Shown here: positions 18,411 to 54,460 of the stretch, piece by piece
Layout of the letters: every line of letters begins with the position of its first letter
How positions within the stretch are numbered: the stretch's first letter is position 1
From: Myxococcota bacterium
Lineage (GTDB): Bacteria > Myxococcota > Myxococcia > Myxococcales > Myxococcaceae
Assembly: GCA_052034585.1 (NCBI GenBank)
Contig: JBPOIJ010000034.1
Coordinates: 19,797 to 83,796, forward strand
Reading direction: 5' to 3'
Length of the DNA: 64,000 nucleotides
The notes under the pieces: generated by a model
The model's database searches: none
What the model was told of the DNA's origin: nothing
The model's input: the letters and a program-made list of their open reading frames with translations, nothing else
Program-made: the position numbers and the translations under genes

Positions 18411-18422
18411 TGAAATGCTCCG

Positions 18423-29321: not shown

Positions 29322-29380
29322 GGGCGGGCGACTCCACCGCTTCGTCGATCGTGCGCACGCTCAAATGGGCGAGTTCGGTG

Positions 29381-30535: not shown

Positions 30536-30586
30536 GGTCCGTTCAACCCGTCGGGCGCACGCAGGTTGCGCGCACGTTCTCCCACC

Positions 30587-31336: not shown

Positions 31337-31412
31337 TCGCGCCGACTGTACGGTGGGTGTTTCCTTTGGCCACAGTTTCTTCCTCGCGGAAGGCGCGCTA
31401 CGCACGGCAGGA

Positions 31413-33535: not shown

Positions 33536-34972
33536 TCAGTCGTCGAACGCGCACCGAAAGGGGAGCCGCTCGGTCGCGCGCTCTTCGACGAGCTCCTCCG
33601 ACTCGACGCGGAAGACGGCACGCCCGAGGGTGGCGATGGCCCGGTGCCACTCCGACAGTCGAGCGAGCCGTTTGCCGGCCCAGCGCGCATAGGCCCTCGC
33701 GTCCTCGAGCTCGACGACGATGGGGAGCGCCCCGAGATTCGGCGGAGGCGTCGCGCCACCCCACTCCGAGGGCGGAGCGCGGTGCGTCCCCAGACAGAAG
33801 CGCGCATACTCGTCGTGCGTCACCGGGCGCTCGTCGAGGAGCAGCTCTCCCACTCGCACCATCGGCCTCGCATCTCGCCCGGGCCACTCGCGCTCGAGCA
33901 CCTCGTCGTCCTCTTCGTCCGTCGGCGTCGCCGCGCTGCGGAGCGGGAAGGCCGGGAGGTCGACCGGCACCAGCGACGACGCCGCGAGGGTGGCGCCGAA
34001 GTGGCCCAGGTCGAGCCGCGCCATCTCGTCCTCGAGCGCCCATGCCGCCGCCCGCTCGTTGGGAAAAGTGCGCTCGAGCACCGCGGCAAGCGCGGTCGCC
34101 TGCGCAGGTCCGACGTGGTCCTGAACCTTGGCGAAGGTGGCGAGCAGCGCGCCCCACGACGGAAAGCGCGCGGTCGGCTCTCGCTGCAAGCACCGCTCGG
34201 CGAAGGCCTCGACCGACGCAGGGAGCCCAGCGCGACGCTCGCGCAACGGCCGGGGGCGCTCGGTGAGGAGCTGGCGAATGAACTCGAAGCCCTCCCCGGG
34301 AAACGCCGAGGCGCCGGTGAGCAACTCGTGGAGCACGAGCCCAGCGGTGAACATCGGGGAGAACGGGCTCGGCGGCAGGCCCCGCACCTGCTCGGGCGAC
34401 AGGTAGCGCGCGGCCCGGAGCGGCATCGTCACCATCGCGCCGGCGGCCATCGTGCGCTCCGAGAGGGTCGCGGCGTCGAGCTCGGCCCGCACCTCGCCCT
34501 GCCAAGCGAAGGTGAGCTCCGCGGCGTCGAGCCCCAGGCCGTCCGTCTGTCGACGGCTCAGCTCCGCCCAGGCGCGAAGCAGCGGCTCCAACACGCCAAG
34601 CGCGAGCCCGGCTGGCAGGTCGGTCATGGGCGTGGCGTGCACGAGCTCGTCGAGGGTGACGTCGCCCGGAGGCGCCTCGACGAGCGCCACCACCTCGAGC
34701 GACTCGTTGGCGAGCGCTGCGAGGAGCGATGGGAAGGCGCGGCTCGTCACCGTCATCAGCAGCCGGCCCCGACGACGGAGCAGCGCCTCGTGCTGACGAA
34801 AGAGCTCGGGGTCGCCGCGGAGAGGCGAGGCGAGCTCGCGCACCACGCAGAGCCGAGGTCGCGCATCGTGGATGACGATGGCGCGAGAGCGCGCGAACCA
34901 GCCGTCGCTCCACTCGGGCCCAATGACGAGCGCCGGGCCCACCCAGCGCGTGGGTCGAACGAGCGACTTCAT
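33536..34972 (-). CDS. kinase-like (pseudokinase) domain fused to an FGE-sulfatase/SUMF1-like domain
   Basis: 478 aa. Retains the YLSPEQ (APE-like) and LHELLTG lobe. No GxGxxG, VAIK, HRD or DFG is recognisable. C-terminus ERPVTHDEYARFC...DARAYARWAGKRLARLSEW is FGE-like. ATGA overlap with the upstream gene. Confidence 0.75.
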   Translation of the reverse strand: MKSLVRPTRWVGPALVIGPEWSDGWFARSRAIVIHDARPRLCVVRELASPLRGDPELFRQHEALLRRRGRLLMTVTSRAFPSLLAALANESLEVVALVEAPPGDVTLDELVHATPMTDLPAGLALGVLEPLLRAWAELSRRQTDGLGLDAAELTFAWQGEVRAELDAATLSERTMAAGAMVTMPLRAARYLSPEQVRGLPPSPFSPMFTAGLVLHELLTGASAFPGEGFEFIRQLLTERPRPLRERRAGLPASVEAFAERCLQREPTARFPSWGALLATFAKVQDHVGPAQATALAAVLERTFPNERAAAWALEDEMARLDLGHFGATLAASSLVPVDLPAFPLRSAATPTDEEDDEVLEREWPGRDARPMVRVGELLLDERPVTHDEYARFCLGTHRAPPSEWGGATPPPNLGALPIVVELEDARAYARWAGKRLARLSEWHRAIATLGRAVFRVESEELVEERATERLPFRCAFDD

Positions 34973-35628
34973 CGGGCCTCCAGGGCGACGAAGGTGGCGA
35001 GGCTGCGAGCGCGAACGCTGGCGAGCGGAGCGATGCGCACGTCGAGGCTCACCCGGGTCATCGGCTCCTCCACCACCTGCGCGCCGTGCAGGTGCAAGGG
35101 CGTGAACAACAGCACCTCGCCCTTCTTCACCTCGAGCGGCGGCAGTCGGTGGCGGGTGAAGGCAGGGTCGTCATCGAGCAACCGCTTCGACTCGGCGAAG
35201 GGCACCGCGTGGAGCGCCGCCGTGCGTCGCGCGTCCGTCAGGGCGAACCAGAGGTTCCGCTCGTCGAGGCCGTGGCCGATGTGATGATCGGTGTGGACTG
35301 GCACCGGTGAGACCTGGTCTTTCGGCACCAGCACCCGGAAGTGCGGAATCGCCTGCACCGCGACGGCCTCGAAGGGCAGCTCCGGCAGCGCCGCGCGAAC
35401 GAGCGCATTCACCAGCGCCCGCGCCTCGTGGCCGTCACCCTCGAAGCAGAGCGCCCGCGACGCCTCGAGCGCCTTCGCCGGGTCGAGCACCTCGTGGGCC
35501 CGCGCGAGCGACGCGACCTGGTGTCCCCTCGAGCGGAGCCGTTCGAGCACCCAGGCCTCCAGCGCCGAGACGTCGACCCGCCGCCGCTCCAGGTCCCACG
35601 CGGGGAGGAAGCCGGTGAGCCTCGGCAC
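34969..35628 (-). CDS. Fe(II)/2-oxoglutarate-dependent oxygenase (PhyH-like)
   Basis: 219 aa. HTD (HxD) followed ~60 aa later by LHLHGA and RVSLDVR, the pattern of the double-stranded beta-helix facial triad plus 2OG-binding Arg. Confidence 0.65.
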   Translation of the reverse strand: MPRLTGFLPAWDLERRRVDVSALEAWVLERLRSRGHQVASLARAHEVLDPAKALEASRALCFEGDGHEARALVNALVRAALPELPFEAVAVQAIPHFRVLVPKDQVSPVPVHTDHHIGHGLDERNLWFALTDARRTAALHAVPFAESKRLLDDDPAFTRHRLPPLEVKKGEVLLFTPLHLHGAQVVEEPMTRVSLDVRIAPLASVRARSLATFVALEAR

Positions 35629-37286: not shown

Positions 37287-38782
37287 GGCAGCTTCACCTG
37301 ACTCAACACAGGAATCTCGAGGCGGCGCGAGACCTGCCACGCCTCGACGAGCGTTCGGCTCCGCACGTCCCTCACCGCGCCGATGCAGAGGGCGACGACG
37401 AGGGAGAGGAAGAAGGCACCTCCGAGGAGCACCGCAGCGTTCGGTGAGGCGGGCTTCTTCGGCACCGACGCGGGCCGCACCACCGAGTAGCGGTACTTGA
37501 ACGCTGCGCGCGCGGTGTCCTGCTCGATGCGGGCGCCGTCGATGCGCATCATCAGCTCTTCGTACTTGGCGGCCGCGACCCGGAGGTTGTTGCGAGCGTG
37601 CTCGACGAGCGGGTCTTCGGACAGCTCGGAGAGGGAGAGCGCGGCTTGGGTCTGCTGGCGGCGGGGCGCGGGCCGGCTCGGACGGCTCGGCTCGACCAAC
37701 GCGTCGGGGTCCTTCCCGCCCTTGCGGTGGTACTCGGCGATGAGCTGCTCGATGTCTTGCTTCACCTGCGACATCTGCGGCGAGTCGAGCTTCATCTGCT
37801 CGATGCGCTGCTGGGCGTCGATGACGACGGGGTGTTGGTCGGCGTACTGAACGCGGAACTCCTGCAGCTGAGCGGTGAGCTCCTGGAGCCGGCGGCTGCG
37901 GAAGTCCTCCAGGTCGGCCAGCGCGCGCTTCTTCGAGTTGAGGAGGAACTTGAGCTGGGCGAGCTCCTGCTCGGTCGCCGCGGGCGGCGCGTTGGGCGTG
38001 GGCTCGGGCGCCGACGGAGGGTTCACCACGGGCGAGGCCGTCTCACCAATCGGGGTCGGCACGTTGGGGCCAGGCGCGCCACCCTTGCGCCGCTCGTCCC
38101 GCACCCGCTCGAGCTCGTGGAGCGCGTCGTCGACGGCCTTCTGCACCTGCGAAGCATGGGACTCGAGAATGGCGAGGGCTTCGCTGATGGCGGTCATCTC
38201 GGTGACGTGCCGGGTCTCGAGGAAGTTCTGCTGCGCCGTCTCGACCAACAGGTAGGCGGTCTGCGCGTCTTGCCAGTCGATGCTGATGTTCACCGTCTGG
38301 GCGTCGGTCTCGACCCGAAGCCGCTTCTCGAGCGTGCCCACCATCGCGTCCATGCGGTCTTCGTCGGTGAGCGGCCCGCTCACCAGCCGCATCGCGAGGT
38401 CCTTCACCTTCACCACCGGTGGGCGGTGCTCTTCCCAGGCCTTGAGCAGGTTCGTCTGCTTGATGAGCGAGACGAGGTTGTCGTGGGCGAAGATGAGCTC
38501 ACGCGCGGCACGCGTCGGGTCCTCGGAGCGCACGCTCGACCGCGGGTTGCCCAGCGCGCGAATGATCTCGTTCTGGTTGGCGAGCAGCTTCGCCTCGGCG
38601 TGCCAGGTGCGAGGAACGAGGAAGGCCCCTGCGACACCGGCACCCAGCGTCACTACGAAGGCCAGCAGCGAGAGGAGCCGGTGCCGACGAACGCCACGAA
38701 ACACGAAGCCGATGATGTTGCGAATGAGCGCGTAGTCGAAGAGATCGAGCGACTCTTCCTTCGTCGGCGTCGCTTGGCTCAC
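37283..38782 (-). CDS. polysaccharide co-polymerase (Wzz/GumC/Wzc-type) without kinase domain
   Basis: 499 aa from VSQATPTKEE. TM1, long coiled-coil periplasmic region, Pro-rich segment, C-terminal TM (AVLLGGAFFLSLVVALCIGAV). No Walker motifs. GTGA overlap with the CheY stop. Confidence 0.85.
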   Translation of the reverse strand: MSQATPTKEESLDLFDYALIRNIIGFVFRGVRRHRLLSLLAFVVTLGAGVAGAFLVPRTWHAEAKLLANQNEIIRALGNPRSSVRSEDPTRAARELIFAHDNLVSLIKQTNLLKAWEEHRPPVVKVKDLAMRLVSGPLTDEDRMDAMVGTLEKRLRVETDAQTVNISIDWQDAQTAYLLVETAQQNFLETRHVTEMTAISEALAILESHASQVQKAVDDALHELERVRDERRKGGAPGPNVPTPIGETASPVVNPPSAPEPTPNAPPAATEQELAQLKFLLNSKKRALADLEDFRSRRLQELTAQLQEFRVQYADQHPVVIDAQQRIEQMKLDSPQMSQVKQDIEQLIAEYHRKGGKDPDALVEPSRPSRPAPRRQQTQAALSLSELSEDPLVEHARNNLRVAAAKYEELMMRIDGARIEQDTARAAFKYRYSVVRPASVPKKPASPNAAVLLGGAFFLSLVVALCIGAVRDVRSRTLVEAWQVSRRLEIPVLSQVKLP

Positions 38783-39165
38783 GTGCCGTCCTGGGAGAGC
38801 GTCTCCTTCACCAGCGCGACGAACTGCGACTGGGTGAAGGGCTTGGCGAGGTAGCGCTTGACGCCCAGCTCTTCGGCATAGGCCCGGTCTTCGGGCATCG
38901 TGCGTGCGCTGATCATCAGAATCGGGAGCCCCTTCAAGGTCGCCGAGTTTCGCACGTGATCGCACACGTCGTAACCGGAAGACTCCGGCAACATGAGATC
39001 GACGCAGAGAATGGAGGGCCGGCCCTCGTCGAGCTTCTTGATCGCCGCCCGCCCGTCCCCGGCGTAGCTCACCGTGAAGCCCATGCGGGTGAGGTAGGCG
39101 CCGATGACCTTGCGAATGTCTGGGTCGTCATCGACGACCAACGCTGTCTGGACCGAGTCTGTCAC
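38779..39165 (-). CDS. single-domain CheY-like response regulator
   Basis: 128 aa. VVDDDPD acidic pocket, phospho-acceptor in ILCVDLMLPE, conserved S/T (MISA) and K (LAKPF). Confidence 0.9.
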   Translation of the reverse strand: MTDSVQTALVVDDDPDIRKVIGAYLTRMGFTVSYAGDGRAAIKKLDEGRPSILCVDLMLPESSGYDVCDHVRNSATLKGLPILMISARTMPEDRAYAEELGVKRYLAKPFTQSQFVALVKETLSQDGT

Positions 39166-39211: not shown

Positions 39212-40420
39212 TCACCACGTGGTGCTGTCCTGGTCATGAAACTGGGCTCCGAGAGTGAGGGCCCAGAGCGTCGTGGGCGCACCTCCGAGCCGGGGCTGCG
39301 ACGTCCACACGAGGCGGCCCGTTCCGAGGAACGAGAGCCAGGTGGAGAAGGCCCAGGTGGCCGAGGCCTCGCTGAAGAGCGCAGTGTCTCCGGCTTGCGG
39401 CGATCGCCCGAGTGGAACCGCGTACCCCGCCCCGACCGAGGCCGTGACCGTCAGCTTCGACGTCGGGCGCGCGTTGCCTCCCAGCCGTCCCTCCAGGCGC
39501 TCGTAGACGAGGCCGGTGAAGCGATCGGCGAAGGGCGACATTCGCAACGAGGCGGTCAGCTGCACGGGCACACCGAACGGCTCGGGCGCCGCCGAGAGCG
39601 ACGCTGCGGCCACTGGGAGCACCTCGAGATGGAAGCCGGGCGGAGGCCCGTTGGGGATCTCCACCACCCGTTCTCGCGTCACCGCCGCACCGCCGCCGAG
39701 GGTGAGCACCGTGGTGCGCGCGAGCTGCCACTCGGCCGATTCCATGCCCAACATGATCGACTGCTCGGCACCCGTGATGAACGCCGCGTGGCTCGCCTGC
39801 CCGGTGGTGATGAGCCGAAAGCGACGACTGGCGACCCAGCGAAGACTCGCGAGCCCGACCGGGCCGTGCTGGAGCGGAAGCTGGAGGCCTCCGGAAGGGT
39901 CGCCCGAGAGCAGGTATGCGCCGCTCAGGGACAGCGCGACTCGGTCGGTCGGGCGCCAATCGAAGGCGAACGCCGAGGCAGAGCGCACGTAGCTCACCGC
40001 GCCGAGCGTCTGCACCTCGTAGACCCCGGTCGGCTGCGAGCCCGCCGGCAATCGGAGCGAGCCGATGTCGGCGGTGCCGTAGGCGCCATCTTGCCGGAGC
40101 GAGAACGACCACCGCTCGAAGCGCTTGGAATAGAGGAGCGACGCTTGATGGAGCGGGAGCACCCGCGGCCTGAGCTGCCACTCACGAATGATCAGCTGCG
40201 GGGCGTAGCGGAGCACCAGCGCCGAGTCCGACCAGGTGAGCCCGCCCTGCGCGAGGGGGTCGAGCTGGAAGTCGGAGGTGAGAATGGTGGCGGCGTCTCC
40301 CGGCAGCGGCGCCCGGCTGGTGAGCGACGTCGTGGCCGAGACCTCGTAGCCCACCACCGCGGCGAACCCTGGCGTCGCCCAGAGCGCCAGGAGCACGACG
40401 GTGGCGAGGCGAGCGTTCAT
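39212..40420 (-). CDS. outer-membrane beta-barrel protein (Wzp/EpsX-like porin candidate)
   Basis: 402 aa. Signal peptide ending FAAV, alternating-hydrophobicity strands throughout, C-terminal aromatic residue (…DSTTW). ATGA overlap with the OPX gene. Confidence 0.7.
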   Translation of the reverse strand: MNARLATVVLLALWATPGFAAVVGYEVSATTSLTSRAPLPGDAATILTSDFQLDPLAQGGLTWSDSALVLRYAPQLIIREWQLRPRVLPLHQASLLYSKRFERWSFSLRQDGAYGTADIGSLRLPAGSQPTGVYEVQTLGAVSYVRSASAFAFDWRPTDRVALSLSGAYLLSGDPSGGLQLPLQHGPVGLASLRWVASRRFRLITTGQASHAAFITGAEQSIMLGMESAEWQLARTTVLTLGGGAAVTRERVVEIPNGPPPGFHLEVLPVAAASLSAAPEPFGVPVQLTASLRMSPFADRFTGLVYERLEGRLGGNARPTSKLTVTASVGAGYAVPLGRSPQAGDTALFSEASATWAFSTWLSFLGTGRLVWTSQPRLGGAPTTLWALTLGAQFHDQDSTTW

Positions 40421-41010: not shown

Positions 41011-41061
41011 GCGCTGGTTCTGGCACGCGTTGAGTCGCGGTCAAGGGGACGAACCCGGTCG

Positions 41062-42138
41062 TCAGTCGAAGTAGTTCCCGACGACCTGCGCATTCGGCAC
41101 CCAGTCGCCGCACAGGTCGCCCGTCGAGTGGAAGACGAGCTTCTGGAGCACGCCCGACTGCACGCCCTCGTGATGCGCGACGTAGCTCGCGGCCTCGAAC
41201 ACCACCTCGACGGGGCCGCGGCGGTAGACCTCGTTCGAGTAGTAGTAGCCAGCCGTCATGCCGACGAAGGTCCAGCCGGGCCGGGTGACGAGCGCGTTCG
41301 ACATCACCTCCGCCATGAGCGCGTGCGCCGAGACGCGATGCCGTTCGATCCACGTCGCCTCGCGGCTGTCTCGATAGAGCGCGCCGAGCTCGGACAACGA
41401 GCGAAAGACCACCTGGCTCACCCCGAGCCGCTCCGCTTCGTCGAGATAGGCCTCGACCTCGGCCAGGGTGCCGACCGCCTGCGAGTTGAGAATGCACACG
41501 AGCTTGAGCTCGAGCCCCGTCGCGAGCACGTCACGCGCCGTTCGTTCGAACGCCGCACGCGCACGAATCGCGACGCCGTTGTCGAAGCGCATCACCCGAT
41601 GATTCACCGCTTCATCGAAGTGACAGCGTGAGAGTTCGATTCGATCGAAGCGGGCGCTCGCGAGCGCAGGCAGCAGACGGGCGTCGCACGCGAGGCCGGA
41701 GCCGTTCGTGTAGAGGACCCGGAGCGGAAAGAGTCCCTCGTGTGAACGCAGCAGCTCGAGCAACCCGAGCAGCCACTCGGGATCAGCCGTCGCCTCGAGC
41801 CCACTCAAGCTGAGGCCCATCGGAAAGCCGGCGAGCTCCGTCCAGGCGCGCGCGAGGCCGTCGAAGTACTGCCGCCGATCGCCGATGACCGTCTTCGCCG
41901 AGAGCCGGTTCGCGTCGAGCCGGAGCAGCTCTTCACTGCAGAACGAGCAGTGCGCGTTGCACGGCACTGGGTTCGCGTACGGGGTGAAGGTGAGGCCCGG
42001 ACGCAGGAGAAATGGTCTGCCGCGGAGCAGTCGCTCGACGGGCGCTGGAGGCTCGAAGCTGCGCCACTTGCCCTCGCGCAGCTCGCCCGGCGTGGTGATG
42101 TCCGCCGCGCGGCGAAACTGGTTGGGCCGAACCGTCAT
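41062..42138 (-). CDS. radical SAM enzyme (no SPASM/auxiliary Cys cluster evident)
   Basis: 358 aa. CNAHCSFC is a CX3CX2C motif near residue 60, with SLSGLEAT in the GGE-motif position. ATGA overlap with the upstream dioxygenase. Confidence 0.8.
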   Translation of the reverse strand: MTVRPNQFRRAADITTPGELREGKWRSFEPPAPVERLLRGRPFLLRPGLTFTPYANPVPCNAHCSFCSEELLRLDANRLSAKTVIGDRRQYFDGLARAWTELAGFPMGLSLSGLEATADPEWLLGLLELLRSHEGLFPLRVLYTNGSGLACDARLLPALASARFDRIELSRCHFDEAVNHRVMRFDNGVAIRARAAFERTARDVLATGLELKLVCILNSQAVGTLAEVEAYLDEAERLGVSQVVFRSLSELGALYRDSREATWIERHRVSAHALMAEVMSNALVTRPGWTFVGMTAGYYYSNEVYRRGPVEVVFEAASYVAHHEGVQSGVLQKLVFHSTGDLCGDWVPNAQVVGNYFD

Positions 42139-44576
42139 GGCGGCGGCCCTACGTCGACGACGCCCGCCATCGCCACCGCGAGCGAACGCGTACCGGAAAA
42201 CGCTTCCCGCGAGTGGCCGTAGCGAACGTTGTCACAGAGCAGGAGATCGCCCGCGCGCCACTGAGCGCCTTCGCGGGTCTCGAGAAAGCCGTGCAGCAGC
42301 AGGTCGAGCTCGCCGCGAGTGAACGGCCTGCCATCTCCGCGCGGATAGCGCCGGTGCCCGTTTCGAACGGACGGTGGATCGAGCGCGATTCGCGGAAACA
42401 ACAGTGAGCGCCCGCAAAACGCCGGAACTCGAATGCGCGTCATGAGCGTGGCGTGGCCGCCTCCTTCGTCCTTCCACCAGCACTCGTCGAACTGGTGCGT
42501 CGCGGCTCGACATCGGCGCGCGGCTTCGGCGCGGTCGGTGGTGGCGAAGCGCTCCTGCCAGGAACGGAAGAAGTTGAGGTGCCGTTCGGGGTGACCCTCG
42601 TCGACGAAGCCCATCTCGATGAGGAGCCCGTGCCGGCGCAGCCCATCGAGCAGCGAAGTGCCCCCGTTGGTGACGAGGAAACGTTCGAGCGCCGCGGCCT
42701 CGTGCACGAAGGTGCGTCCGCCCTGGTCCGGCTCGACGTCGCGCGCCGAGAAGAAGAGGAGCCGCGCGGGAATGGTGCGTTGGTAGAGCACCTCGTTGTG
42801 CGGGAGCAGCCAGAGGTGCGGTGGATACTCGTCGGTCGCGCGCAGCTCCGGGCTCAACGCGCGGCGAGTGGTGCGACCACTGCTCATCCCGCCCCAGGGG
42901 AACGAGTCGTTCGGCGAGAAGCCGAGCGCAGCGAGAATGGTCGTCGGGAGCGCGCCCGCGTGCTCGACCTCGATGCCGGTGTTCTGCACGAGCACCGCGC
43001 CATGACGATCGAACTCACGCCGAATGGCGGCACTGCGGGCGTCGTTCAGCGTTCCCTCGCCGTCGAAGACACGCACGCTGAAGCGCACGTCACGCCGAAC
43101 GAGCTCGGGCGGAAATGCGTACGCCTGAGGTCCATCGGTCGCGATCGGGCCCAGCGAGGACTCAGTGGGGAGGATCGGCGAGCTCGCGGCCCTCCCGACG
43201 CTAGCCGTCTCGTCGAGGACCGGCAGGGACGCACCGTCGTTCGCGTCGACTCGGTCCATCTCGGCAGGAGGTGGGCCATGGGCGTTCGACGAGGCTGGCG
43301 AGCGCGTCGACGAACCAGCCAGGTTGCTCGCGTGAGATGGCCCGGCTCGAACGCTCACGGCTCTCGCGCGCGGCACGAGCGTCGATGCATCGGGGTCGAG
43401 CGGAACGGTCGCGGGTTGCCCGTGATTGGCCCGCGCGCCTCGAACGAACGCGTCGCCGTTCAGCTCCGATGATGCATGCCCCATGGGCGGTCCTGAGTCC
43501 GCTTGGCCGATCGCTCCAGGCCCGTCGACAATCGTGACCAGCGCCGGGTCGTGAACCGACTCCGGCGAAGCACTGGACGCCCTCACCTCCCCCGCCATCG
43601 CGACGAGCACGTTCCGCTCACCGGTGAACGACTCACGCGAATGTCCGAAGCGCACGTTGTCGAAGAGCACGAGATCGCCCGCGCGCTGCGCCACGCCTTC
43701 ACGAGTCTCGAGCAGCACCGAGCGAACGACCTCTTCTTCATCCGGCGTCAGCGAACTCCCATCACCGAGCGGGAATCGTCGAAGACCATTCCGCGCAGCC
43801 GGCCCATCGAGCGCCACGCGCGGAAACCGGAGAAACCCGTCGCCCCACTTCGCCGCGAGGGTGATGCACGTCATCAGCGTCTGCTCCGGCCCCCACCAGC
43901 ACTGGTCGTGTTCGTCGCTCGCCGCGCTCGCCCGCCGCATCGCCTCGTCCGCGTCGTCGGTCTCGAAGCGTTCCTGCCACGACTGAAACGTGTTCGACGC
44001 CTTCTCCGGGTGCCGCGCGTCGAGGAAGCCGGTCTCGATGGACACGCCGTGACGGACCATGCGCTCGAGGAGAATGGGCGCGCGGCGTGCCAGCTCGGCC
44101 TCCACCGCCCGCGCGGAGTGAAGAAAGATCCGCCCTCCACTCGGAGCAACCCCGAGACAGGCGAAGAGCACCCAGCGTGGACTCGCTCGCCGGTACTGCA
44201 CCTCGTTGTTCGCGAGCAGGTAGAGGTCGGGCGGGTAGTAGTCGAGCCGACGGAGCCCAGGCGCGGCCCACTTCTCCTGCGTCGAGGCGGCCGTTCGTCC
44301 ACCGAGTGAGAACTGCTGCGACGGCCCGAAGCCGAGCGCAGGAAGCACCTCGACGACCTCCTCGACCCGAGTGAGCCCCGTTCCAGTGACGTGAAGCGCC
44401 CCGTGCCGCTCGAGCTCGATGCGCAGGCAACGCACCCCGAGTTCATCGAGCCGGCCGCGAGCGTCGAAGACCCGCCCGCTGAAGCGTTCGCCGCGCATCG
44501 CGACAGACCGTTCACGCCAACGCTCGACGGGCGACGTCACCAGCCCATCGTCGCAGGTGCTGCACCCATCCTCCAA
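42135..44576 (-). CDS. tandem TauD/clavaminate-synthase-like Fe(II)/2OG dioxygenase (two ~330-aa repeats joined by a low-complexity linker)
   Basis: 813-aa ORF. Repeat 2 has LLPHNEV...DNVRYGHSRE (HxE...H...R). Repeat 1 has LLANNEV...DNVRFGHSRE. Start uncertain: TTG 44576, GTG 44540 or ATG 44498. Confidence 0.7.
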   Translation of the reverse strand: MEDGCSTCDDGLVTSPVERWRERSVAMRGERFSGRVFDARGRLDELGVRCLRIELERHGALHVTGTGLTRVEEVVEVLPALGFGPSQQFSLGGRTAASTQEKWAAPGLRRLDYYPPDLYLLANNEVQYRRASPRWVLFACLGVAPSGGRIFLHSARAVEAELARRAPILLERMVRHGVSIETGFLDARHPEKASNTFQSWQERFETDDADEAMRRASAASDEHDQCWWGPEQTLMTCITLAAKWGDGFLRFPRVALDGPAARNGLRRFPLGDGSSLTPDEEEVVRSVLLETREGVAQRAGDLVLFDNVRFGHSRESFTGERNVLVAMAGEVRASSASPESVHDPALVTIVDGPGAIGQADSGPPMGHASSELNGDAFVRGARANHGQPATVPLDPDASTLVPRARAVSVRAGPSHASNLAGSSTRSPASSNAHGPPPAEMDRVDANDGASLPVLDETASVGRAASSPILPTESSLGPIATDGPQAYAFPPELVRRDVRFSVRVFDGEGTLNDARSAAIRREFDRHGAVLVQNTGIEVEHAGALPTTILAALGFSPNDSFPWGGMSSGRTTRRALSPELRATDEYPPHLWLLPHNEVLYQRTIPARLLFFSARDVEPDQGGRTFVHEAAALERFLVTNGGTSLLDGLRRHGLLIEMGFVDEGHPERHLNFFRSWQERFATTDRAEAARRCRAATHQFDECWWKDEGGGHATLMTRIRVPAFCGRSLLFPRIALDPPSVRNGHRRYPRGDGRPFTRGELDLLLHGFLETREGAQWRAGDLLLCDNVRYGHSREAFSGTRSLAVAMAGVVDVGPPP

Positions 44577-44582
44577 CCGTCG

Positions 44583-46082
44583 TTACTTGGAGATGTTCTC
44601 CTTCAGGATCTGCCCCAAGACGATTCGGTCGGCGACGAGCCAGCGGCCAATCGGCGTCACCGAGCCACCCCGGCTGTACTTTCGAATCGTGTAGTACACG
44701 AGCTGGTACTTCTCGCCGTGCGCCTCCGCGAGGCAGACCTGAAACTCGTCGTACACGCGCGGGTAGGTCGTGACGATGAGGTAGTCGCCCTGCTCGCGGG
44801 TGTCGGTGCTGGTGGTGCTCACGTGCTGGAGCGCCGAGTTGATCACCATTCGCTCCCACGAGGAGTAGCCCGCCGCCTTGATCGCAGTCGTCGCCGTGCT
44901 CATCAGCCCCGAATCGGTCGAGCGCGCTGACGGCATTCGGGTCGCCTCGAGCGCCGCGCGCGCCTGCGAGAGCACCACGTCGACGTGCGCGCGATACTTT
45001 CTCGCGAGGGCGAGGCTCTCGGGGTCCTTCTTGCCCAGCCACTGCTCCCGGTACGTCGCCAGCGCCTCGGCCCCTTCAGCGCCATCTTTCAGGCCTTCGA
45101 TGATGTCCTTGATGACGCGGTGAGGGGCGTTGTTCTCGATCGCCCACTTCCCGCGCCCCATGAGCTGGAAGAACGCTCCCGCGCGCCCGCCGTTCGAGGC
45201 CGGGTTCTCGCTCGCCACGTCGGCCAGACACGAATCGAGCTTGGTGCCGAGGTGCATCGAGAACTCCACCTCGAGCCGCTTGAGCCGCTCGTCACGGGAG
45301 AACGCGGGGTGCTCGGCCTCGAGGTGTTCGAGGTGGGTGACGCCCTTCTCGCGGAGCTTCTGGTACTGCCGCATGTCGCCCAGCCACTCGCCGATGCGCG
45401 CCGGGCTGTAGGGCCGCTTGAGCTTGCAGTCGAAGGTGGGTCCGAACACGGCGGCGAGCTCGTCGAGTTGCTGGCCCACGTCCTTCGCTTCGGCGGCGAA
45501 CGCGGCGGCCTTCTCCTCGGCGGCCTTCTTTCCCGCGGCGACCTTCTCGGCGAGCTTCACCTCGAACTGGTCGATGCTCGCGCGAGCGGCGACGACCTGC
45601 GGGTGCTGCTGATCCCCGACTCGCTCGAGCGCGCTCCGCATCTGCTGCGCGGCACCTTTCAGCGAGATTCGATCGATCGCCGCGATGGGATCGATGGCAG
45701 CGAGCTCCTCCTGATAGCGCTCGGCGACCTTCTGGTACTCCTCGAAGTAGTGCCGATCGATCGACCCCATGGCGACCTCGGCGCCCGCAGCCGGTGCTTC
45801 TCCAGTCGACGCCGCGAGCCCCTTGGCGCGAATGCGGTCGATGAGCGCGGTCGAGCGATCGACCTGTGCCTTCCACGCCGCGTCCCGGTTGCGCAGCTTC
45901 CCGAACTCGGTGCGAACACCGTTCACCTTGAGCACCAGCGAGTTGGCGGTCGCGCGATCCCCCGCTCGAAGGAGCTCGGCTTGCTGCTCGATGGCGTCGA
46001 GCTGGGCCTGCAGCTCGGGAAGCTCGGCCAGCGCGACCGTCGCGGCGAAAGCCATCAGGACGACTGCCAGACGATTGGGCAT
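44583..46082 (-). CDS. secreted protein of unknown function, coiled-coil-rich N-terminal half
   Basis: 499 aa. Signal peptide MPNRLAVVLMAFAATVALA. Coding-like GC3. Ends 6 nt before the dioxygenase ORF. Confidence 0.7.
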   Translation of the reverse strand: MPNRLAVVLMAFAATVALAELPELQAQLDAIEQQAELLRAGDRATANSLVLKVNGVRTEFGKLRNRDAAWKAQVDRSTALIDRIRAKGLAASTGEAPAAGAEVAMGSIDRHYFEEYQKVAERYQEELAAIDPIAAIDRISLKGAAQQMRSALERVGDQQHPQVVAARASIDQFEVKLAEKVAAGKKAAEEKAAAFAAEAKDVGQQLDELAAVFGPTFDCKLKRPYSPARIGEWLGDMRQYQKLREKGVTHLEHLEAEHPAFSRDERLKRLEVEFSMHLGTKLDSCLADVASENPASNGGRAGAFFQLMGRGKWAIENNAPHRVIKDIIEGLKDGAEGAEALATYREQWLGKKDPESLALARKYRAHVDVVLSQARAALEATRMPSARSTDSGLMSTATTAIKAAGYSSWERMVINSALQHVSTTSTDTREQGDYLIVTTYPRVYDEFQVCLAEAHGEKYQLVYYTIRKYSRGGSVTPIGRWLVADRIVLGQILKENISK

Positions 46083-46188: not shown

Positions 46189-46440
46189 ATGGTGTCCCGC
46201 GGCGATGCGCTCGCGCGTCTTCTCCGGAACGTGAAGACGCTCCCCACTGGCTACAGCTCAAGCCACTTCGCCAGCCGCGAGCTCGCCAGGCAGATCGAGC
46301 GGTTCACCACGCTGACGAGCGCGCCTCCCGTTCGCGGGGCCTTCGGAGCAGCCGATCAGTGGGAGACCGTCGACGCTCGCTCGGCGCCACGAACGAAGAC
46401 GTCGAACGACCACCGCGACCAGCAGGCTCGGCAGCGCTGA
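46189..46440 (+). other. possible 83-aa antisense-oriented ORF or gene remnant
   Basis: High GC3 across the ORF, inside an otherwise unexplained 377-bp gap in a minus-strand operon. No motif recognised. Confidence 0.25.
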
Positions 46441-48094: not shown

Positions 48095-49477
48095 TCAGCT
48101 CGCGCCCCTGCCCGTCAGCACCACCGGGAAGGTCTTCAAGATGAGGCTGATGTCCTTCGTGAAGCTCCAGGTGTCGATGTACTGGAGGTCCATGTACATC
48201 CACTGCTCGAAGGAGATCTCGTTGCGGCCCGAGACCTGCCAGATGCAGGTGAGGCCGGGGCGAACCGAGAGCCGGCGGCGCTGCCAGGACTGATACTTCG
48301 CGACCTCCTGCGGAACGGGCGGGCGCGGGCCCACGACGCTCATGTCACCACGGAGCACGTTGATGAGCTGCGGCAGCTCGTCGATGGAGAACTTCCGGAG
48401 GAAGCGGCCGATGGAGGTGATGCGCGGGTCCCTCTTCATCTTGAAGACCGGCCCGTCCATCTCGTTCTGCTCGGCGAGCTTGGCCTTCAGCTCCTCGGCG
48501 TTCACCACCATCGTGCGGAACTTCAGCATGCGGAACGGGCGGCCGTGCAGCCCGACCCGCGTCTGGCGGAAGAGCACCGGGCCACGCGAGGTGAGCTTGA
48601 TGAGCGCCGCCACCGTGAGCAGCAAGGGCGCGAGCAGCCAGAGCGCGATGCCCGAGGAGAGGATGTCGAAGGCGCGCTTGAAGGCCATCGCCACCGGGCG
48701 CGAGGCGACCGTCTGGTAGTGGAGGTAGCCGTCCTTCACGCCGTGAGTGCCCAAGGGGCGCGCGCGGTCGAAGCGGAACATCGAGGCGGGGAGCGCGAAC
48801 GGAATGCCGAAGGCCTCGCACACCTTGATGGCCTTCTGGGTCTCGGGCGCGTTCGCGACGGAGTTCGAGGCGAAGTACACCTCGGCGACCGGCATCGTGC
48901 GCAGCACCGAGTCGAGGTCGGTGGTGGTGCCCAGCGTCTGGCCCTTGAGCTGCGACGGCGTGGTCTCGTCGGCGTAGCGAACGAAGCCGGCGACCTGCAT
49001 GCGGCCGTTCTTCTTCACCTCGTCAGCGGTCGCCCGGCCGAGCGGCCCGACGCCCACGATGAGCACGTCGTCGATGGGGCCCGACTGGCTCGAGAAGTTG
49101 CGGAAGACGGAGAACCGCATGCCGATGGCGAGCGGCCAGAGGATGAGGAGGAAGACGCCGACGTTCGGCAGCCCTTCCATGCGGAAGATGAGGCTCGCCA
49201 CCGCCAACACCGTGGTGACCGCCAGCACGAGCACCGACGTCATCGCCGCGTCGTCCGGCGCGCTGCGCTCAGACGCCCACGGGTCGTAGTGCCGCAACGA
49301 CATCGCGATGATGAGCCAGGTCAGCAGCGCCGGAATGGCCATGCCGAGCGCGATGGACTCGAAGCCGCCGTGGATCCACGAGGCTGCTGCCAAGGCGATG
49401 AGGACGAGGAGCAGGTCGAGCAGGAAGCTGACCCGCGCCACGAACCCTGCTGCGATTCGCCCGAAAAGTGAGTTCAT
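48095..49477 (-). CDS. polyprenyl-phosphate glycosyl-1-phosphate transferase (WbaP/EpsZ-type PHPT)
   Basis: 460 aa. C-terminal bacterial sugar transferase domain: KRAFDI, LKFRTM, DELPQLINVLRGDMSVVGPRP. Confidence 0.95.
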   Translation of the reverse strand: MNSLFGRIAAGFVARVSFLLDLLLVLIALAAASWIHGGFESIALGMAIPALLTWLIIAMSLRHYDPWASERSAPDDAAMTSVLVLAVTTVLAVASLIFRMEGLPNVGVFLLILWPLAIGMRFSVFRNFSSQSGPIDDVLIVGVGPLGRATADEVKKNGRMQVAGFVRYADETTPSQLKGQTLGTTTDLDSVLRTMPVAEVYFASNSVANAPETQKAIKVCEAFGIPFALPASMFRFDRARPLGTHGVKDGYLHYQTVASRPVAMAFKRAFDILSSGIALWLLAPLLLTVAALIKLTSRGPVLFRQTRVGLHGRPFRMLKFRTMVVNAEELKAKLAEQNEMDGPVFKMKRDPRITSIGRFLRKFSIDELPQLINVLRGDMSVVGPRPPVPQEVAKYQSWQRRRLSVRPGLTCIWQVSGRNEISFEQWMYMDLQYIDTWSFTKDISLILKTFPVVLTGRGAS

Positions 49478-49847: not shown

Positions 49848-52370
49848 TCAGGCTGCTGATGAGGCGACGCCGGCGGCCTGAGGTCGAGCAAGCGCGCGAG
49901 GCAGCACGCCGTACCACTGCCGATGCCGACTGGCGGCGCGCCCGATGATGGCGACGGCGACCGAGACGAAGAAGACGAACTGCATCGCCTGCGTGCCCAT
50001 GTCTCCGAAGGCCTGGAGCAGATAGGTGATGAGCACCGCGCTCGCGACGAGCAGCCCGATGCGCTCCTCGGTGTCGTCCACCACCTTGATGGCGCGCGCG
50101 AAGAAGAAGCTCGTCACTCCGAGGTAGAGCCAGACGGCGAAGAACCCGAGCAACCCGCCGATCCACAACAGCCAGAGCACCGAGTTGTGGCCGATGTGCC
50201 CGAAGGCCGACTGCGCGAAGTCGTTCGAGGGAATGAACTCGGTGAAGGCGTGGCCGAAGCCCTGGCCGAGCACCATGTCGCGCTCCCAGGACTTGAGGAG
50301 GTTGAAGTTCTCGATGTCGCGCTCGGCGTTCGAGCTCTCCTCCTCGGTCTCGGCGGCAGGCGCGACGATCGACCGGAGCTTGACCACCGGCTTGAAGACG
50401 CCCCCCCGCTGATTCCACCCGACGGCGGTGTAGAGCAACAGCACCGGCACCATCGCCACCACGAACTGGGTGAGCGCGCGCTTCACTCGGTGCATCGGGC
50501 TCATCAGGTAGATGAAGCCCAGCGCCAGCACGATGTCGACGTAGGCGATGCGGCGGTCGTTGAGCCTCAGCGCCATGAAGAGGAACGGCAGCCAGAGCAG
50601 CGCCTCGCCGAGGTGGCGCCACGACGGGCGTTCCCAGATGCGCGCCAGCGCGAGCACCACCCCGATGCTGAACACCATCGTGTCGTTGTGGCCGGTGGTG
50701 TGTGGAGGGTACTCGCCCGCGGGGAAGGCGACCCGGTACATGAACCAGGTGCCGAGGAGCGACTTCACCACGCTCCCCACCACCAGCACCCGGCCCACCA
50801 GCCGCAGGTCCTTCGGGAAGTCGAAGGCGAGCAGCGAGAGCATCGCCACCACCGGCATGAAGAGCAGCGCGCGGACCTGCCAGAGCGCCTCGCGGAAGAC
50901 GCCTCCACGCAAGACGCCCCAGGCGACGAGCCAGCCGATGGTGAGGAAAGACACGAGGAGCGCCGTTCGCAGCGGACGCGGGCCCGGCGTGCCTGGCGCT
51001 TCCATCGCGCTCGAGCGGCCCACGATGCGGCGGAGCAACGTCAGCCCGGTCAGGCCCATCACCGCGAGCTCGAAGCCGGTGAACCAGGCGACGTTGGTGA
51101 AGAAGAGCTTGCCCAGCGACCAGAGCGGCGACCGCCAGAGGTTGTAGTACGGCCGGTCGGTCGGGTCGTCGAGGGTGACCGCGAGCAGCATCAGCCCCAA
51201 CAGCGGCCACTTGAGCGGCAGCTTCCACAACGCCACCAGCCCGAGCACCACCAGGCCGGGCGCCATGCCGAAGAGCGGGTTGCCTCGGCCCACCGCCAAC
51301 GACGCGCCGCTCGCGACGCCGAGGAGCACCATCGGCACCACCGAGCGTGCGGCTTCGCCCACCATCAGGCCCGACCAGTCGCGGCGAATGTGCGCGAGCA
51401 CCGGGAGACCGGTGAGGCGGGTGACCTGCGCCGCGGTGAGGACCCGCCGGCTCAACATCGCTGCGCCGACGCTGCCGCCGACGACCGTCGTCACCGCCAA
51501 CACCGCGAGCGCGACCAGCCACCCGAGCGTCGACGGTCCATCGGGGCGGCGCGGCGGCAAGGGCGGCTTCGTCACCAGCAACCGGAACCGCGCCGACTTC
51601 GCCATCGCCTCGGCGCGCAGGTGGGTGTTGTCGGCCTCGAGCCAGAGCTCCGAGAAGCGCCGCGAGTCGCGCATGAGCTGTTCCTGCACCCCGGCGTAGT
51701 TCGGCCACACGCCGAGCGAGCGCGCGCGCCGTTGTTCGGTCTCGATGAGCTCGAGCCGGGCCTTCATCTCGGCTTCGACGCCGTCACGCTGACCGTCGAG
51801 GGAGCTCGCGGAGGCCTCGAGCGCGTGCACGTCACGCTCGATGCGGAGGTCCTTCAGCGCCGCCACGGTGCCGCTGACGATGGCCACCGCCACCTCGCGC
51901 TCGGGCCAGTCGCAGGCGATGAAGACCTTGTCGCGCTCCACCCAGACCGCGAGGTGCTTGTCCACCATCGCCACCAGCGCGTCGAGGAGGTCGACCTCGC
52001 TCACCGGCCCGCGCAGCGTCTCCATCACCCGGTTCTTGAGCCGAATCGGCCAGGGCCGCGACGACTCCCAGCGGTCCATCAAGCCGGTGCGCTTCACCAA
52101 CGCCACGAGGTGCGCCTTGGAGGTGAGCTCTTCAGGCAATTCCCGGAGGCCCTGCTGGAGCGGCGGCACCGCGTCGAAGGGCGCCGTCAGCCGGTACATC
52201 GTCGTCGGCTCGGAGACGATGACCTCGGCCTGGACTCGCCACACCGGCGGCATCGCCGCGTTCACGAGGAACACCGCGAGGAAGGCCGCCACGACGCTCA
52301 GGGCGCCCGCGAGCCGATGCCTCGACAGGCTCACCCGCAGCAGCTGCCGCACCCACCGCTCGCGTCGCAT
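49848..52370 (-). CDS. fusion protein: N-terminal PCP (Wzz/GumC-like) domain plus C-terminal Wzy/O-antigen-ligase-like polymerase domain
   Basis: 840 aa. Residues ~1-300 show TM1, a coiled-coil periplasmic region, the Pro-rich KPPLPPRRPDGP motif and TM2. The remainder has ~10 TM segments with a Wzy_C-like loop (GQGFGHAF...FGHIGHNSVLWLLWIGGLLG). Confidence 0.85.
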   Translation of the reverse strand: MRRERWVRQLLRVSLSRHRLAGALSVVAAFLAVFLVNAAMPPVWRVQAEVIVSEPTTMYRLTAPFDAVPPLQQGLRELPEELTSKAHLVALVKRTGLMDRWESSRPWPIRLKNRVMETLRGPVSEVDLLDALVAMVDKHLAVWVERDKVFIACDWPEREVAVAIVSGTVAALKDLRIERDVHALEASASSLDGQRDGVEAEMKARLELIETEQRRARSLGVWPNYAGVQEQLMRDSRRFSELWLEADNTHLRAEAMAKSARFRLLVTKPPLPPRRPDGPSTLGWLVALAVLAVTTVVGGSVGAAMLSRRVLTAAQVTRLTGLPVLAHIRRDWSGLMVGEAARSVVPMVLLGVASGASLAVGRGNPLFGMAPGLVVLGLVALWKLPLKWPLLGLMLLAVTLDDPTDRPYYNLWRSPLWSLGKLFFTNVAWFTGFELAVMGLTGLTLLRRIVGRSSAMEAPGTPGPRPLRTALLVSFLTIGWLVAWGVLRGGVFREALWQVRALLFMPVVAMLSLLAFDFPKDLRLVGRVLVVGSVVKSLLGTWFMYRVAFPAGEYPPHTTGHNDTMVFSIGVVLALARIWERPSWRHLGEALLWLPFLFMALRLNDRRIAYVDIVLALGFIYLMSPMHRVKRALTQFVVAMVPVLLLYTAVGWNQRGGVFKPVVKLRSIVAPAAETEEESSNAERDIENFNLLKSWERDMVLGQGFGHAFTEFIPSNDFAQSAFGHIGHNSVLWLLWIGGLLGFFAVWLYLGVTSFFFARAIKVVDDTEERIGLLVASAVLITYLLQAFGDMGTQAMQFVFFVSVAVAIIGRAASRHRQWYGVLPRALARPQAAGVASSAA

Positions 52371-52371: not shown

Positions 52372-52545
52372 TCAGGTCCCGAGCCGGGGCAGCACCACCC
52401 GCACGAAGAAGGCGTAGGTGACGTGGAGGAGGACGAGCCCCAACAACGCGAACCGCAGCCCTCGCACGGGGTGCCGTTGCCTCGCCGCCAGCACCGGAAT
52501 GCCGATGAGCCCGATGACGATGGAGAGGAGGAGGAGCTTGCTCAC
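52372..52545 (-). CDS. 57-aa two-TM membrane microprotein
   Basis: GTG start forms a GTGA overlap with the GH44 stop. Its own stop lies 1 nt before the PCP-Wzy ATG. Two hydrophobic helices (LLLLSIVIGLIGIPVLA; FALLGLVLLHVTYAFFVRVV). Confidence 0.5.
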   Translation of the reverse strand: MSKLLLLSIVIGLIGIPVLAARQRHPVRGLRFALLGLVLLHVTYAFFVRVVLPRLGT

Positions 52546-54299
52546 GGGGAGAGCACGAGGACCGAGACCGACAACGGCGGCATCGTATAGCGAAACGCGT
52601 TGGTTCCGCTCGCGGTGACGGCGGTGCCTCGGGTCACGGTGGCCGTCGAGCCCTGCAGCACGAAGGGCGTCAGCGTCTGGTAGCGCTGCGGGTGGGCGAC
52701 CGAGATGCCGGCCGCGTGGGCGGTCGTCTCCTTGTTGATGGCGACCAGCACGGTGCGGCCCGGGTTGGCGGCGTCGACGCTCGCGTAGATGGTGGCCATC
52801 GGCACGGCGCTCGAGGTGGCGTCGATGGAGGTGTCTCCGAAGGCCCCGCCCTGCCCGTCGAAGTTGCGGAAGGCCTCGAAGGCGGCGTCGGCGAACGTCT
52901 CGGCGCCGTTGAGCTTCCAGTAGGTCGCGAGCTCGACGCTCTCTCGGCCAAAGACGCCGAGCACGTCGGCGGTGGCGATGGCGCCGCTGATGTGCCCGCC
53001 GCCGCCGTAGTTCCACTCGGTGAAGGCCAGCTTGGTGCCCGGGTTGGTGCGCTGAATCTTCTCGCGCAGCCGTGGCAGCAGTCGCACCGGCTGGTTGTTG
53101 ATGGTCTGGACGATCCAGCTCGACTCGACGTAGCCGGTGTCCCACAGGCTCCGCGGGGCCTGGACGCGGGCGGTGACGGACGCGGCGCTGGTGTCGGTGC
53201 CGATGATGCGCTGGTTGCCGCCGCGGGCCTCTGGGTACCAGTGGAGGTCGAGGTAGTCGACGAGCCGCTTGCCCTCGGTCTGGCTCGCCATCGCGGCCTG
53301 GGTGAGGAAGTAGTCGATGTACTCGCCCTTCCCGCTCGCGTCGGTCGCGTTCTGCAGGTTCACGTAGCCGTTCCAGCCGTACGAAACGAAGCCGGTCACC
53401 TCGGCCTGGGGCCAGGCGCGCTTGACGGCCTTCGCGTAGTCGAGGCTGCGGGTGGTGAGCTCGACGTAGGTCACCTTGACCGGGTGAATCTCGGCGTGGG
53501 TGTCGCTCCAGAGGTCGGGCTCGTTGTCGAGGGAGAAGAGGACCTGGGTCGAGCCGGCGTTCGTCTTCACCCAGTTCACGAACTCGTCTTGGTAGACGAA
53601 GCCGTCGGAGGTGTCGGGCGTGGTTGCGAAGGCCGAGCCCTTGGTGTGCCGGTTCTGCTTGAAGCGCGTCGTCAGGTAGTTCGCGCCCGAGCCGCGCACG
53701 TCGCCGCCGGGGCTCTTGTCGGCCGCGACGTGATCGACGATGGGCACGGTGACGAGGAGCGCGGCGTTGATGGCGCGCGCAGCGGTGAGTCGATCGGTGA
53801 TGACCTGCCCGGCGGTGCCCGAGTTCGAGAGGTACCCGTCGTTCTGGTACATGTAGTCGCTCCCGGCGTTCGAGGCGTTGTTCTCCCAGTTGAACGCGGT
53901 GAGACGGTTGCCTCCGAGGCGGAGCAGCCCGTAGCGGTTGCGCGTCGGGTTCGCGGCCTGGTTGGTGCCGTAGATGAGGGGCGAAATGCGGTGCCGGTTC
54001 CGGTCGGAGCGGATGGTGAAGGTGACGTCGGCCGCTGCGGGGGCGTCGGGCGTGAGGGGCTGATCGAGGTTCAGGCTCGAGCTGCCGCCGCCGGTGACGG
54101 TGCCGCCGCCAGTGGCCGAACCTCCGCCGGAGACCGAGCCTCCGCCGGTGACGGAGCCTCCGCCGGTCGCGTCGCCGCCTCCGGTTCCAGAGACGCCACC
54201 TGCCGAGCTGCCGCCCCCGACCCCACCGTCATTCCCCATCATCGGCGCGCTGCAGCCGACCAACACGCTCACTGCCACCATCATCGTTCGCGTCGTCAT
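52542..54299 (-). CDS. GH44-like glycoside hydrolase lipoprotein with Gly-rich tether
   Basis: Start re-placed at MTTRTMMVAVSVLVGC. ISPLIYGTNQ, LRLGGNRLTAFNWENNASNAGSDY, SLDNEPDLWSDTHAEIHP and FTEWNYGG match my memory of GH44 catalytic-domain motifs. Confidence 0.75.
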   Translation of the reverse strand: MTTRTMMVAVSVLVGCSAPMMGNDGGVGGGSSAGGVSGTGGGDATGGGSVTGGGSVSGGGSATGGGTVTGGGSSSLNLDQPLTPDAPAAADVTFTIRSDRNRHRISPLIYGTNQAANPTRNRYGLLRLGGNRLTAFNWENNASNAGSDYMYQNDGYLSNSGTAGQVITDRLTAARAINAALLVTVPIVDHVAADKSPGGDVRGSGANYLTTRFKQNRHTKGSAFATTPDTSDGFVYQDEFVNWVKTNAGSTQVLFSLDNEPDLWSDTHAEIHPVKVTYVELTTRSLDYAKAVKRAWPQAEVTGFVSYGWNGYVNLQNATDASGKGEYIDYFLTQAAMASQTEGKRLVDYLDLHWYPEARGGNQRIIGTDTSAASVTARVQAPRSLWDTGYVESSWIVQTINNQPVRLLPRLREKIQRTNPGTKLAFTEWNYGGGGHISGAIATADVLGVFGRESVELATYWKLNGAETFADAAFEAFRNFDGQGGAFGDTSIDATSSAVPMATIYASVDAANPGRTVLVAINKETTAHAAGISVAHPQRYQTLTPFVLQGSTATVTRGTAVTASGTNAFRYTMPPLSVSVLVLSP

Positions 54300-54460
54300 C
54301 GTGCACCTCACGTCAGGACTGCACCGGGAACACAGGCTGGGCTTCGCCTCACCCGGTGCAAGGCGGAGCTCTGAGCCGCATCGACTTCGAGTTCGCGAAC
54401 ACAACGTGCGCGCGTCAGAGTAAGGCGGGCGTAGCACTTCTCAAGGAGCGCGTCGCCCGC

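Follow-up and report, generated by a model that had tools for sequence, protein, structure and literature searches.

A probable recent composite insert at the wzx–epsY junction of a myxobacterial eps operon, carrying part of a widespread radical SAM–nucleotidyltransferase cassette

We have analyzed three genes, here called A, B and C, in an exopolysaccharide (EPS) operon on the minus strand of a 64,000-nt stretch of DNA (the window) from a Myxococcota bacterium of the family Myxococcaceae (contig JBPOIJ010000034.1). [quoted passage not shown] We consider this insert to be, with a probability of about 0.6, a recent lineage-specific composite of two unrelated items rather than a coherent three-enzyme module. 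One item would be A, a predicted exported helical-repeat protein without a conserved genomic partner. The other would be B and C, a translationally coupled pair from a self-contained cassette that encodes a tandem TauD-like dioxygenase (B), a radical S-adenosylmethionine (SAM) enzyme (C) and an approximately 170-aa protein with a nucleotidyltransferase fold (NT), the latter being absent here. Below, compared loci and contigs are denoted Lnnn, and database proteins, Pnnnn.

The cassette was recognized from the genomic context of C in other bacteria. A scan with the C alignment, using one genome per GTDB species, yielded 58 loci, and a set of 60 non-redundant C loci from other genomes was used for clustering of open reading frames (ORFs). 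In the latter set C is present in 60/60 loci, NT is encoded directly downstream of it in 51/60, and B, directly upstream in 24/60; gene tables of Rhodocytophaga, Leptospiraceae, Polyangiales and Myxococcaceae-like contigs agree with the clustering. The 24 B-C loci come from Myxococcota and one Leptospiraceae and are nearly always followed by NT; in Bacteroidota and other phyla the cassette consists of the radical SAM enzyme and the nucleotidyltransferase only. The window copy, with the tandem TauD gene upstream of the radical SAM gene and overlapping it, fits the Myxococcota/Leptospiraceae form. In a tblastn search with the window proteins, none of the 58 loci had a homolog of EpsZ, Wzx, EpsY, EpsX, EpsV, EpsU or A at a distance of up to 10 kb from C, and further conserved neighbors are only generic (histidine kinases, ABC-F ATPases, an M1 peptidase in four related loci), along with shadow ORFs. 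The conserved unit is thus C-NT, with or without B in front, and neither A-B-C nor a polysaccharide-locus element. An earlier note on this DNA had raised the question whether the trio co-occurs across Myxococcota and always sits in wzx/OPX loci; A is unlinked to B-C elsewhere, and all 24 B-C loci lie outside loci with an initiating phosphoglycosyl transferase (PHPT), Wzx and OPX proteins. Our literature search on the association of radical SAM, nucleotidyltransferase and TauD proteins, including Myxococcota, Hymenobacter and exopolysaccharide, returned nothing relevant.

The NT proteins are 124–369 aa long (median 168.5) and share the invariant pattern G...DxD...D with small nucleotidyltransferases of the Pol-beta fold; matches to NTP_transf_5, MdcG and ANT(2'') are weak and below the Pfam cut-offs. 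These features indicate a minimal Pol-beta-type nucleotidyltransferase. Natural fusions of C and NT (P0012, 512 aa, and P0013, 496 aa; E-values of 3e-56 and 6e-52 with the NT hidden Markov model, HMM) are Rosetta-stone evidence for a joint function of C and NT. In the 64-kb window no NT was found with this HMM (best E-value 1.7), and C is followed by epsY instead. In two loci a large polytopic membrane protein without a Pfam match is encoded upstream of B (L007:6347-7873, Leptospiraceae; L009:5007-6668, Polyangiales); the one in Leptospiraceae is on the same strand, 42 nt from B, and its CDDAFISFRY motif recalls GT-C enzymes, but it is not conserved across loci.

The age and borders of the insert follow from comparison with relatives. 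In Myxococcus xanthus, EpsZ, Wzx and EpsY are encoded by the consecutive genes MXAN_7415, MXAN_7416 and MXAN_7417 (PMC7484181), in line with the earlier note; the flanking genes of the window have the same types and order as in this EPS Wzx/Wzy locus (EpsZ 7415, WzxEPS 7416, EpsY 7417, EpsV 7421, EpsU 7422), but 5.45 kb and three genes separate wzx from epsY. A metagenomic relative (L079), whose EpsZ, Wzx and EpsY are 86, 83 and 90% identical to those of the window, also lacks the insert: its wzx and epsY are contiguous, the wzx stop codon overlapping the epsY start (ATGA), and the DNA similarity to the window ends at 46497 and restarts at 40956. Two loci of a closer relative (L081 and L082; EpsZ 96%, Wzx 92% identical) carry neither A nor epsY directly after wzx, where there is an opposite-strand gene of the fatty-acid desaturase family (354 aa; L081:5856-6920, L082:1950-3014). 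Other cargo at this place in a close relative speaks for a permissive insertion hotspot, and the 3' junction of wzx looks like a variable insertion site in this clade. The B-C-51 nt-EpsY-EpsX-EpsW arrangement is shared by a sister lineage (L076; C 91%, EpsY 98% identical). The next closest C and B homologs (L077 and L083; C 81%, B approximately 72–79% identical) belong to the canonical B-C-NT cassette, which in these two loci is syntenic, flanked by Exo_endo_phos/OMP genes and FtsX genes. By these comparisons the insert is young and restricted to a narrow clade. Scanning metagenomes with Wzx gave no more than two loci, so that its frequency among relatives is judged from few contigs.

On the minus strand the genes follow in the order EpsZ, Wzx, A, B, C, EpsY, EpsX, EpsW, EpsV, EpsU, as established with Pfam and NCBIfam. 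The features are:

48095-49477, minus strand: EpsZ-like initiating phosphoglycosyl transferase (PHPT), flank; NF041877 EpsZ, 642 bits; Bac_transf, 234 bits
46460-47974, minus strand: Wzx_EPS-like flippase, left border of the insert; NF041871, 426 bits
46083-46459, spacer: wzx-A spacer, 377 nt, without a counterpart in the insert-free relative L079
44583-46082, minus strand: gene A, predicted secreted protein of 499 aa, helical repeats and a C-terminal beta domain
42135-44498, minus strand: gene B, tandem TauD/TfdA-like protein of 787 aa; PF02668, 65 bits; the ORF reaches TTG at 44576 (42135-44576)
43542-44498, minus strand: N-terminal TauD-like domain of B, N-x-E...H; motif YPPDLYLLANNEVQY, aligned to the HxE motif of At3g21360/SqoD
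43137-43541, minus strand: interdomain linker of B, low complexity
42135-43136, minus strand: C-terminal TauD-like domain of B, intact H-x-E...H facial triad (PHNE ... GHSRE), by alignment to the MaSqoD triad
41062-42138, minus strand: gene C, radical SAM enzyme of 358 aa; CNAHCSFC motif; start overlaps the B stop (ATGA)
41011-41061, spacer: C-epsY spacer, 51 nt, right border of the insert; same spacing in the sister lineage L076
40417-41010, minus strand: EpsY-like short OPX protein, flank; NF041843, 198 bits; Poly_export and SLBB
39212-40420, minus strand: EpsX-like outer-membrane beta-barrel, flank; NF041842, 72 bits; PF28089 EpsX on identical contigs
38779-39165, minus strand: EpsW-like single-domain response regulator (CheY-type), flank; NF041866, 128 bits
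37283-38782, minus strand: EpsV-like polysaccharide co-polymerase (PCP), flank; NF041864, 338 bits; 499-aa gene call on L002
36075-37286, minus strand: EpsU-like GT2 glycosyltransferase, flank; NF041865, 570 bits

For each flanking gene the top NCBIfam match is the corresponding M. xanthus Eps model, with a score below the equivalog cut-off in every case (e.g., EpsZ 642/800, EpsU 570/700, EpsX 72/550), and we therefore regard these as orthologous-type genes of a more distant myxobacterium, from a different genus or family. The window has counterparts of the genes for the composite EpsY/EpsX translocon, formed by the short OPX protein and the beta-barrel, of M. xanthus EPS (PMC9601211), and an EpsW-like gene corresponding to the EPS regulator EpsW (PMC12802240). 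Both insert junctions were found again in contigs that had been assembled separately and from different sequencing runs (L001, L003, L069, L070), and therefore the arrangement is not an assembly chimera.

The gene order, the gene types and the position of the three genes agree with the earlier note, whose ORF coordinates are exact, but the tight packing described there was overstated. The ATGA overlap of B and C is seen in the DNA (...ccgccATGAcgg...), and it is the only overlap among A, B and C. The reported gap of 6 nt requires a B reading frame that reaches back to TTG at 44576 and is probably over-extended: B homologs start at the Met of the ATG at 44498 (MRGERF.. aligned with MRDEHF..), and separate gene calls on identical contigs give a B of 787–789 aa. 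With the start at 44498, the A-B gap is approximately 78–84 nt; the insert is set off from wzx by 377 nt and from epsY by 51 nt. An 83-aa plus-strand ORF (46189-46440, GC content at third codon positions, GC3, of 0.82) lies within the wzx-A spacer and may be either a gene or a chance ORF.

The N-terminus of A carries a signal-peptide-like segment, inferred from sequence, and neither B nor C has one; accordingly predicted locations differ, with A exported and B and C cytoplasmic, which makes joint action on a single substrate topologically unlikely. The AlphaFold2 (AF2) model of A (pLDDT 83.5) consists of consecutive helical repeats with a small beta domain after them. A had no match in Pfam, NCBIfam or PADLOC, PDB sequence searches yielded nothing usable for it, a Pfam scan of 28 members of its family gave nothing, and a Foldseek comparison of the model with PDB folds found none at E<0.001 and none below E=0.01. 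A search of 5.8 billion clustered proteins identified just four relatives, with 195 remote ones at the representative level; the three of these four with readable contigs are in unrelated gene contexts without linkage to B-C, and the locus with the closest A homolog is not syntenic with the window.

C belongs to the radical SAM superfamily as judged by motif and predicted fold, and lies outside any described subfamily. Its cluster motif CX3CX2C (C60-N-A-H-C64-S-F-C67) is invariant across 54 homologs, and the AF2 model (pLDDT 91.9, predicted template modeling score, pTM, 0.90) shows a radical-SAM fold with a partial (beta/alpha)6 TIM-barrel core. The model has 113 Foldseek matches in PDB at E<=0.001, those listed being radical SAM enzymes; the nearest are MoaA, viperin, SuiB, NifB, DesII and BlsE (probability 1.0, TM 0.48–0.52, identity 11–20%). 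The radical SAM assignment of the earlier note is thus upheld, though it is supported by the motif and the confident fold and not by the search with PF04055. Indeed, no Pfam family, including PF04055, matches C at E<=10, a precomputed PF04055 match exists in a minority of its homologs, NCBIfam gives nothing at E<=0.01, and no PDB relative was found by sequence, even with a 54-sequence profile. The family is deeply divergent within the superfamily, yet sizeable and strongly conserved, with 367 detectable homologs, approximately 60 invariant positions, all retained by the window protein, and the signature motifs RPGLTFTPYANP, GYYYYNE and QKLVFHSxGxLCGDW; besides CX3CX2C, C215 is invariant and C343, nearly so. 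MoaA, viperin, DesII and BlsE resemble C in having a CX3CX2C cluster near the N-terminus and a partial TIM barrel, and their substrates are nucleotides or nucleotide-linked sugars. MoaA differs in having a second cluster, and C also lacks SPASM or twitch cysteines. Two specific assignments of C were rejected. It has no C-terminal cysteine-rich motif for auxiliary clusters, as required of the SPASM/twitch enzymes (maturases of ribosomally synthesized and post-translationally modified peptides, anSME), and its match to prokaryotic viperins (PADLOC pVip, E=0.003, 15 bits) covers the core only and is unaccompanied by NCBIfam or Pfam matches.

The tandem TauD-like character of B, proposed in the earlier note, holds: PF02668 is matched with 65 bits against a gathering cut-off of 27, and the two halves are 47–48% identical, that is, a true internal duplication. 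Approximately 80 tandem homologs remain at 90% clustering. A tandem TauD protein is also encoded in cultured isolates, namely Legionella bononiensis, outside Myxococcota (P0346), and Archangium violaceum (P0319). The closest PDB relatives of both halves are At3g21360 (1y0z) and the sulfoquinovose dioxygenase MaSqoD (9yut), matched by the C-terminal half with E-values of 2.6e-11 and 8.3e-07. In MaSqoD the facial triad is His115/Glu117/His308, and Gln120 and Trp253 bind sulfoquinovose (PMC12951627). Like these proteins, B is of the TauD/TfdA Fe(II)/2-oxoglutarate type, and in the alignment with them its C-terminal domain retains an intact iron triad (H-N-E ... H, GHSRE), with Glu as the carboxylate ligand. 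Unlike them, B is a fused tandem whose N-terminal copy has N-N-E, with Asn in place of the first iron-binding His, in the window and in every homolog recovered by the motif scan. The N-terminal domain is probably non-catalytic, and since NNE is kept in all recovered homologs, B would be a conserved tandem of a pseudo-enzyme and an enzyme. The sugar-binding residues of SqoD do not recur in B, where Tyr is aligned with Gln120 and nothing corresponds to Trp253. The Ser/Ala/Pro/Gly-rich linker of B is approximately 90 aa longer than that of its homologs (787 aa in total vs. 599–746 aa for most), is in frame and identical across independent contigs, and has the same GC3 (0.79) as the flanking domains.

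Both B and C are under purifying selection. The ratio of nonsynonymous to synonymous substitution rates (dN/dS) between the window and the sister lineage is 0.20 for C, 0.13 for the available fragment of B, and 0.09–0.12 for EpsY, EpsX and EpsW; against a homolog in the canonical context it is 0.22. Both frames are intact, with the CX3CX2C and HxE...H motifs kept. Taken with the retained invariant residues and motifs, the dN/dS values make decay unlikely.

Weak consensus scans identified a sole, sigma70-like promoter-like site upstream of epsZ (49710-49683); the same scans found neither a promoter-like site in the wzx-A spacer, nor terminator-like sites in the wzx-A and C-epsY spacers. B-C are probably transcribed together with the eps operon by read-through. 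A search around the insert for terminal direct or inverted repeats and target-site duplications found none of them, and only brought up the duplication inside B and short matches due to chance. Its base composition and GC3 bear no distinctive signature of foreign DNA; GC3 of B is 0.80 compared to 0.85–0.96 in the neighbors, which is weak evidence. A search for riboswitches and other RNA families in the window and seven cassette loci yielded only a tRNA.

In the mechanism that we propose, C would use one [4Fe-4S] cluster for reductive cleavage of SAM, and the resulting 5'-deoxyadenosyl radical would abstract hydrogen from a cytoplasmic small molecule. Our best guess is that this molecule would be nucleotide-linked, because C has NT as a partner and a MoaA/viperin/DesII-like fold associated with nucleotide or nucleotide-sugar substrates; the hydrogen-atom donor may be the invariant Cys215. 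A 2-oxoglutarate-dependent oxidation would be carried out by the C-terminal domain of B, with the N-terminal NxE domain as a non-catalytic scaffold or substrate-binding partner. In the window, B-C would retain an ancestral non-EPS role, riding in the operon, possibly with NT encoded elsewhere.

The alternative put forward in the earlier note, that A, B and C constitute a single conserved oxidative/radical module, co-translated with the export machinery and functionalising the polymer or a non-sugar substituent, now seems very improbable. It is suggested by the adjacency of the genes on one strand and the B/C overlap, but A is not linked to B-C in the three relatives' contigs that could be read, the A-B gap is not 6 nt, and the third conserved partner of B-C is NT rather than A. 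Moreover, only A has a signal-peptide-like segment, placing the proteins in separate compartments. Radical SAM enzymes depend on cytoplasmic Fe-S assembly and reductants, and hence C could not act on an exported polymer. The comparative data thus largely refute a three-gene polymer-modifying module: the trio is not conserved as a unit, wzx and epsY adjoin each other in L079, and a different gene follows wzx in L081. The remark that the two enzymes do not form a known glycan-tailoring pair stands, as they fall into no characterized family, glycan-related or other. Improbable as well is that B-C are a functionless NT-less fragment of the cassette, decaying neutrally within the operon. The near-universal partner NT is indeed not in the window, the B linker is unusually long and of low complexity, and dN/dS of C is slightly above that of the neighboring eps genes; however, dN/dS of 0.13–0.20, close to the value against the canonical-context homolog, the intact frames with all invariant residues and both motifs, and the layout conserved in the sister lineage speak against it.

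A more serious, though still tentative, alternative is co-option for tailoring of EPS precursors, where B-C without NT would act on a cytoplasmic building block of the EPS (hydroxylating, epimerising or deoxygenating it, or altering it by C-C chemistry), making the EPS lineage-distinct, and A might act separately on the exported polymer. Several of the points in its favor also weigh against the composite-insert reading. The arrangement persists in the sister lineage at dS of approximately 0.24, with B-C kept under purifying selection in two lineages; it sits inside the operon with spacers free of terminator-like sites, and the downstream operon genes need transcription across it; both fit co-option. 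Among the solved relatives of B, the nearest one whose substrate is known uses a sugar (sulfoquinovose), DesII and BlsE, which work on nucleotide-sugars, are among the structural neighbors of C, and the loss of NT would be sensible if the substrate were already nucleotide-activated. Other decoration genes are present in the window, encoding a GNAT protein, a hexapeptide acetyltransferase, a deacetylase and an AMP-binding enzyme. Tailoring genes of polysaccharide loci are typically lineage-specific acquisitions, and hence an EPS role in the window is compatible with absence from other eps loci. Further, NT may be encoded beyond the 64-kb window, and the tblastn survey could overlook Wzx or OPX proteins that have diverged strongly in loci outside the myxobacteria. 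On the contrary, co-option is disfavored by 0/24 other B-C loci and 0/60 C loci lying within a polysaccharide locus, the loss of SqoD Gln120 and Trp253 in B, the superfamily-generic level of the C fold matches (TM approximately 0.5), and the different cargo at the wzx junction of a close relative. As none of the 60 other loci is glycan-associated and the junction is hotspot-like, we rate a composite insert without a dedicated EPS role somewhat above co-option in likelihood. In this lineage B-C may carry out C-H functionalisation of an EPS precursor, but nothing in the present data favors it. A bolder version, which we regard as rather unlikely, is that the radical SAM/NT pair, joined by the tandem pseudo/active TauD protein in Myxococcota, Leptospiraceae and, judging by B homologs, possibly Legionella, is an undescribed, widely scattered system for making or modifying a nucleotide-linked metabolite, whose radical/oxygenase half was captured in this lineage by the eps operon to install a new C-H-functionalised sugar in the EPS.

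Several other genes surround the operon. Downstream of EpsU there are a 148-aa ORF, a PhyH-like protein (phytanoyl-CoA dioxygenase family) and another protein, which shows weak kinase-like and FGE-sulfatase-like domains (34969-35628 and 33536-34972, both on the minus strand); the PhyH-like protein is another oxygenase candidate adjoining the eps genes. Upstream of epsZ we observe an 840-aa protein without a Pfam match (49848-52370, minus strand; weakly similar to EpsV at 51699-52322), a GH44 glycoside hydrolase (52542-54437, minus strand) and a FemAB-type GNAT acetyltransferase (54356-55393, plus strand). Decoration-type genes at 16140-20923 (minus strand) and 28674-32348 encode an asparagine synthase-like protein, an AMP-binding enzyme, a hexapeptide acyltransferase, a WecG/TagA glycosyltransferase and a polysaccharide deacetylase, and the 85-aa ORF at 18165-18422 among them is possibly a carrier protein.

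Overall, the operon is of a known type, and its lineage-specific insert is drawn from an uncharacterized but widespread enzyme cassette. For EPS biology it is a caution, as adjacency within an operon had been read as a tailoring module, and comparative genomics points to a recent insertion at a variable junction. It also provides two leads. The radical SAM family, missed by Pfam, NCBIfam and PDB sequence searches, with its nucleotidyltransferase partner and, in some phyla, a tandem dioxygenase, is a target for enzymology, and the sister lineages, whose eps operons are alike apart from having or lacking the insert, offer a natural experiment on the recruitment of a cassette to a social-motility polysaccharide.

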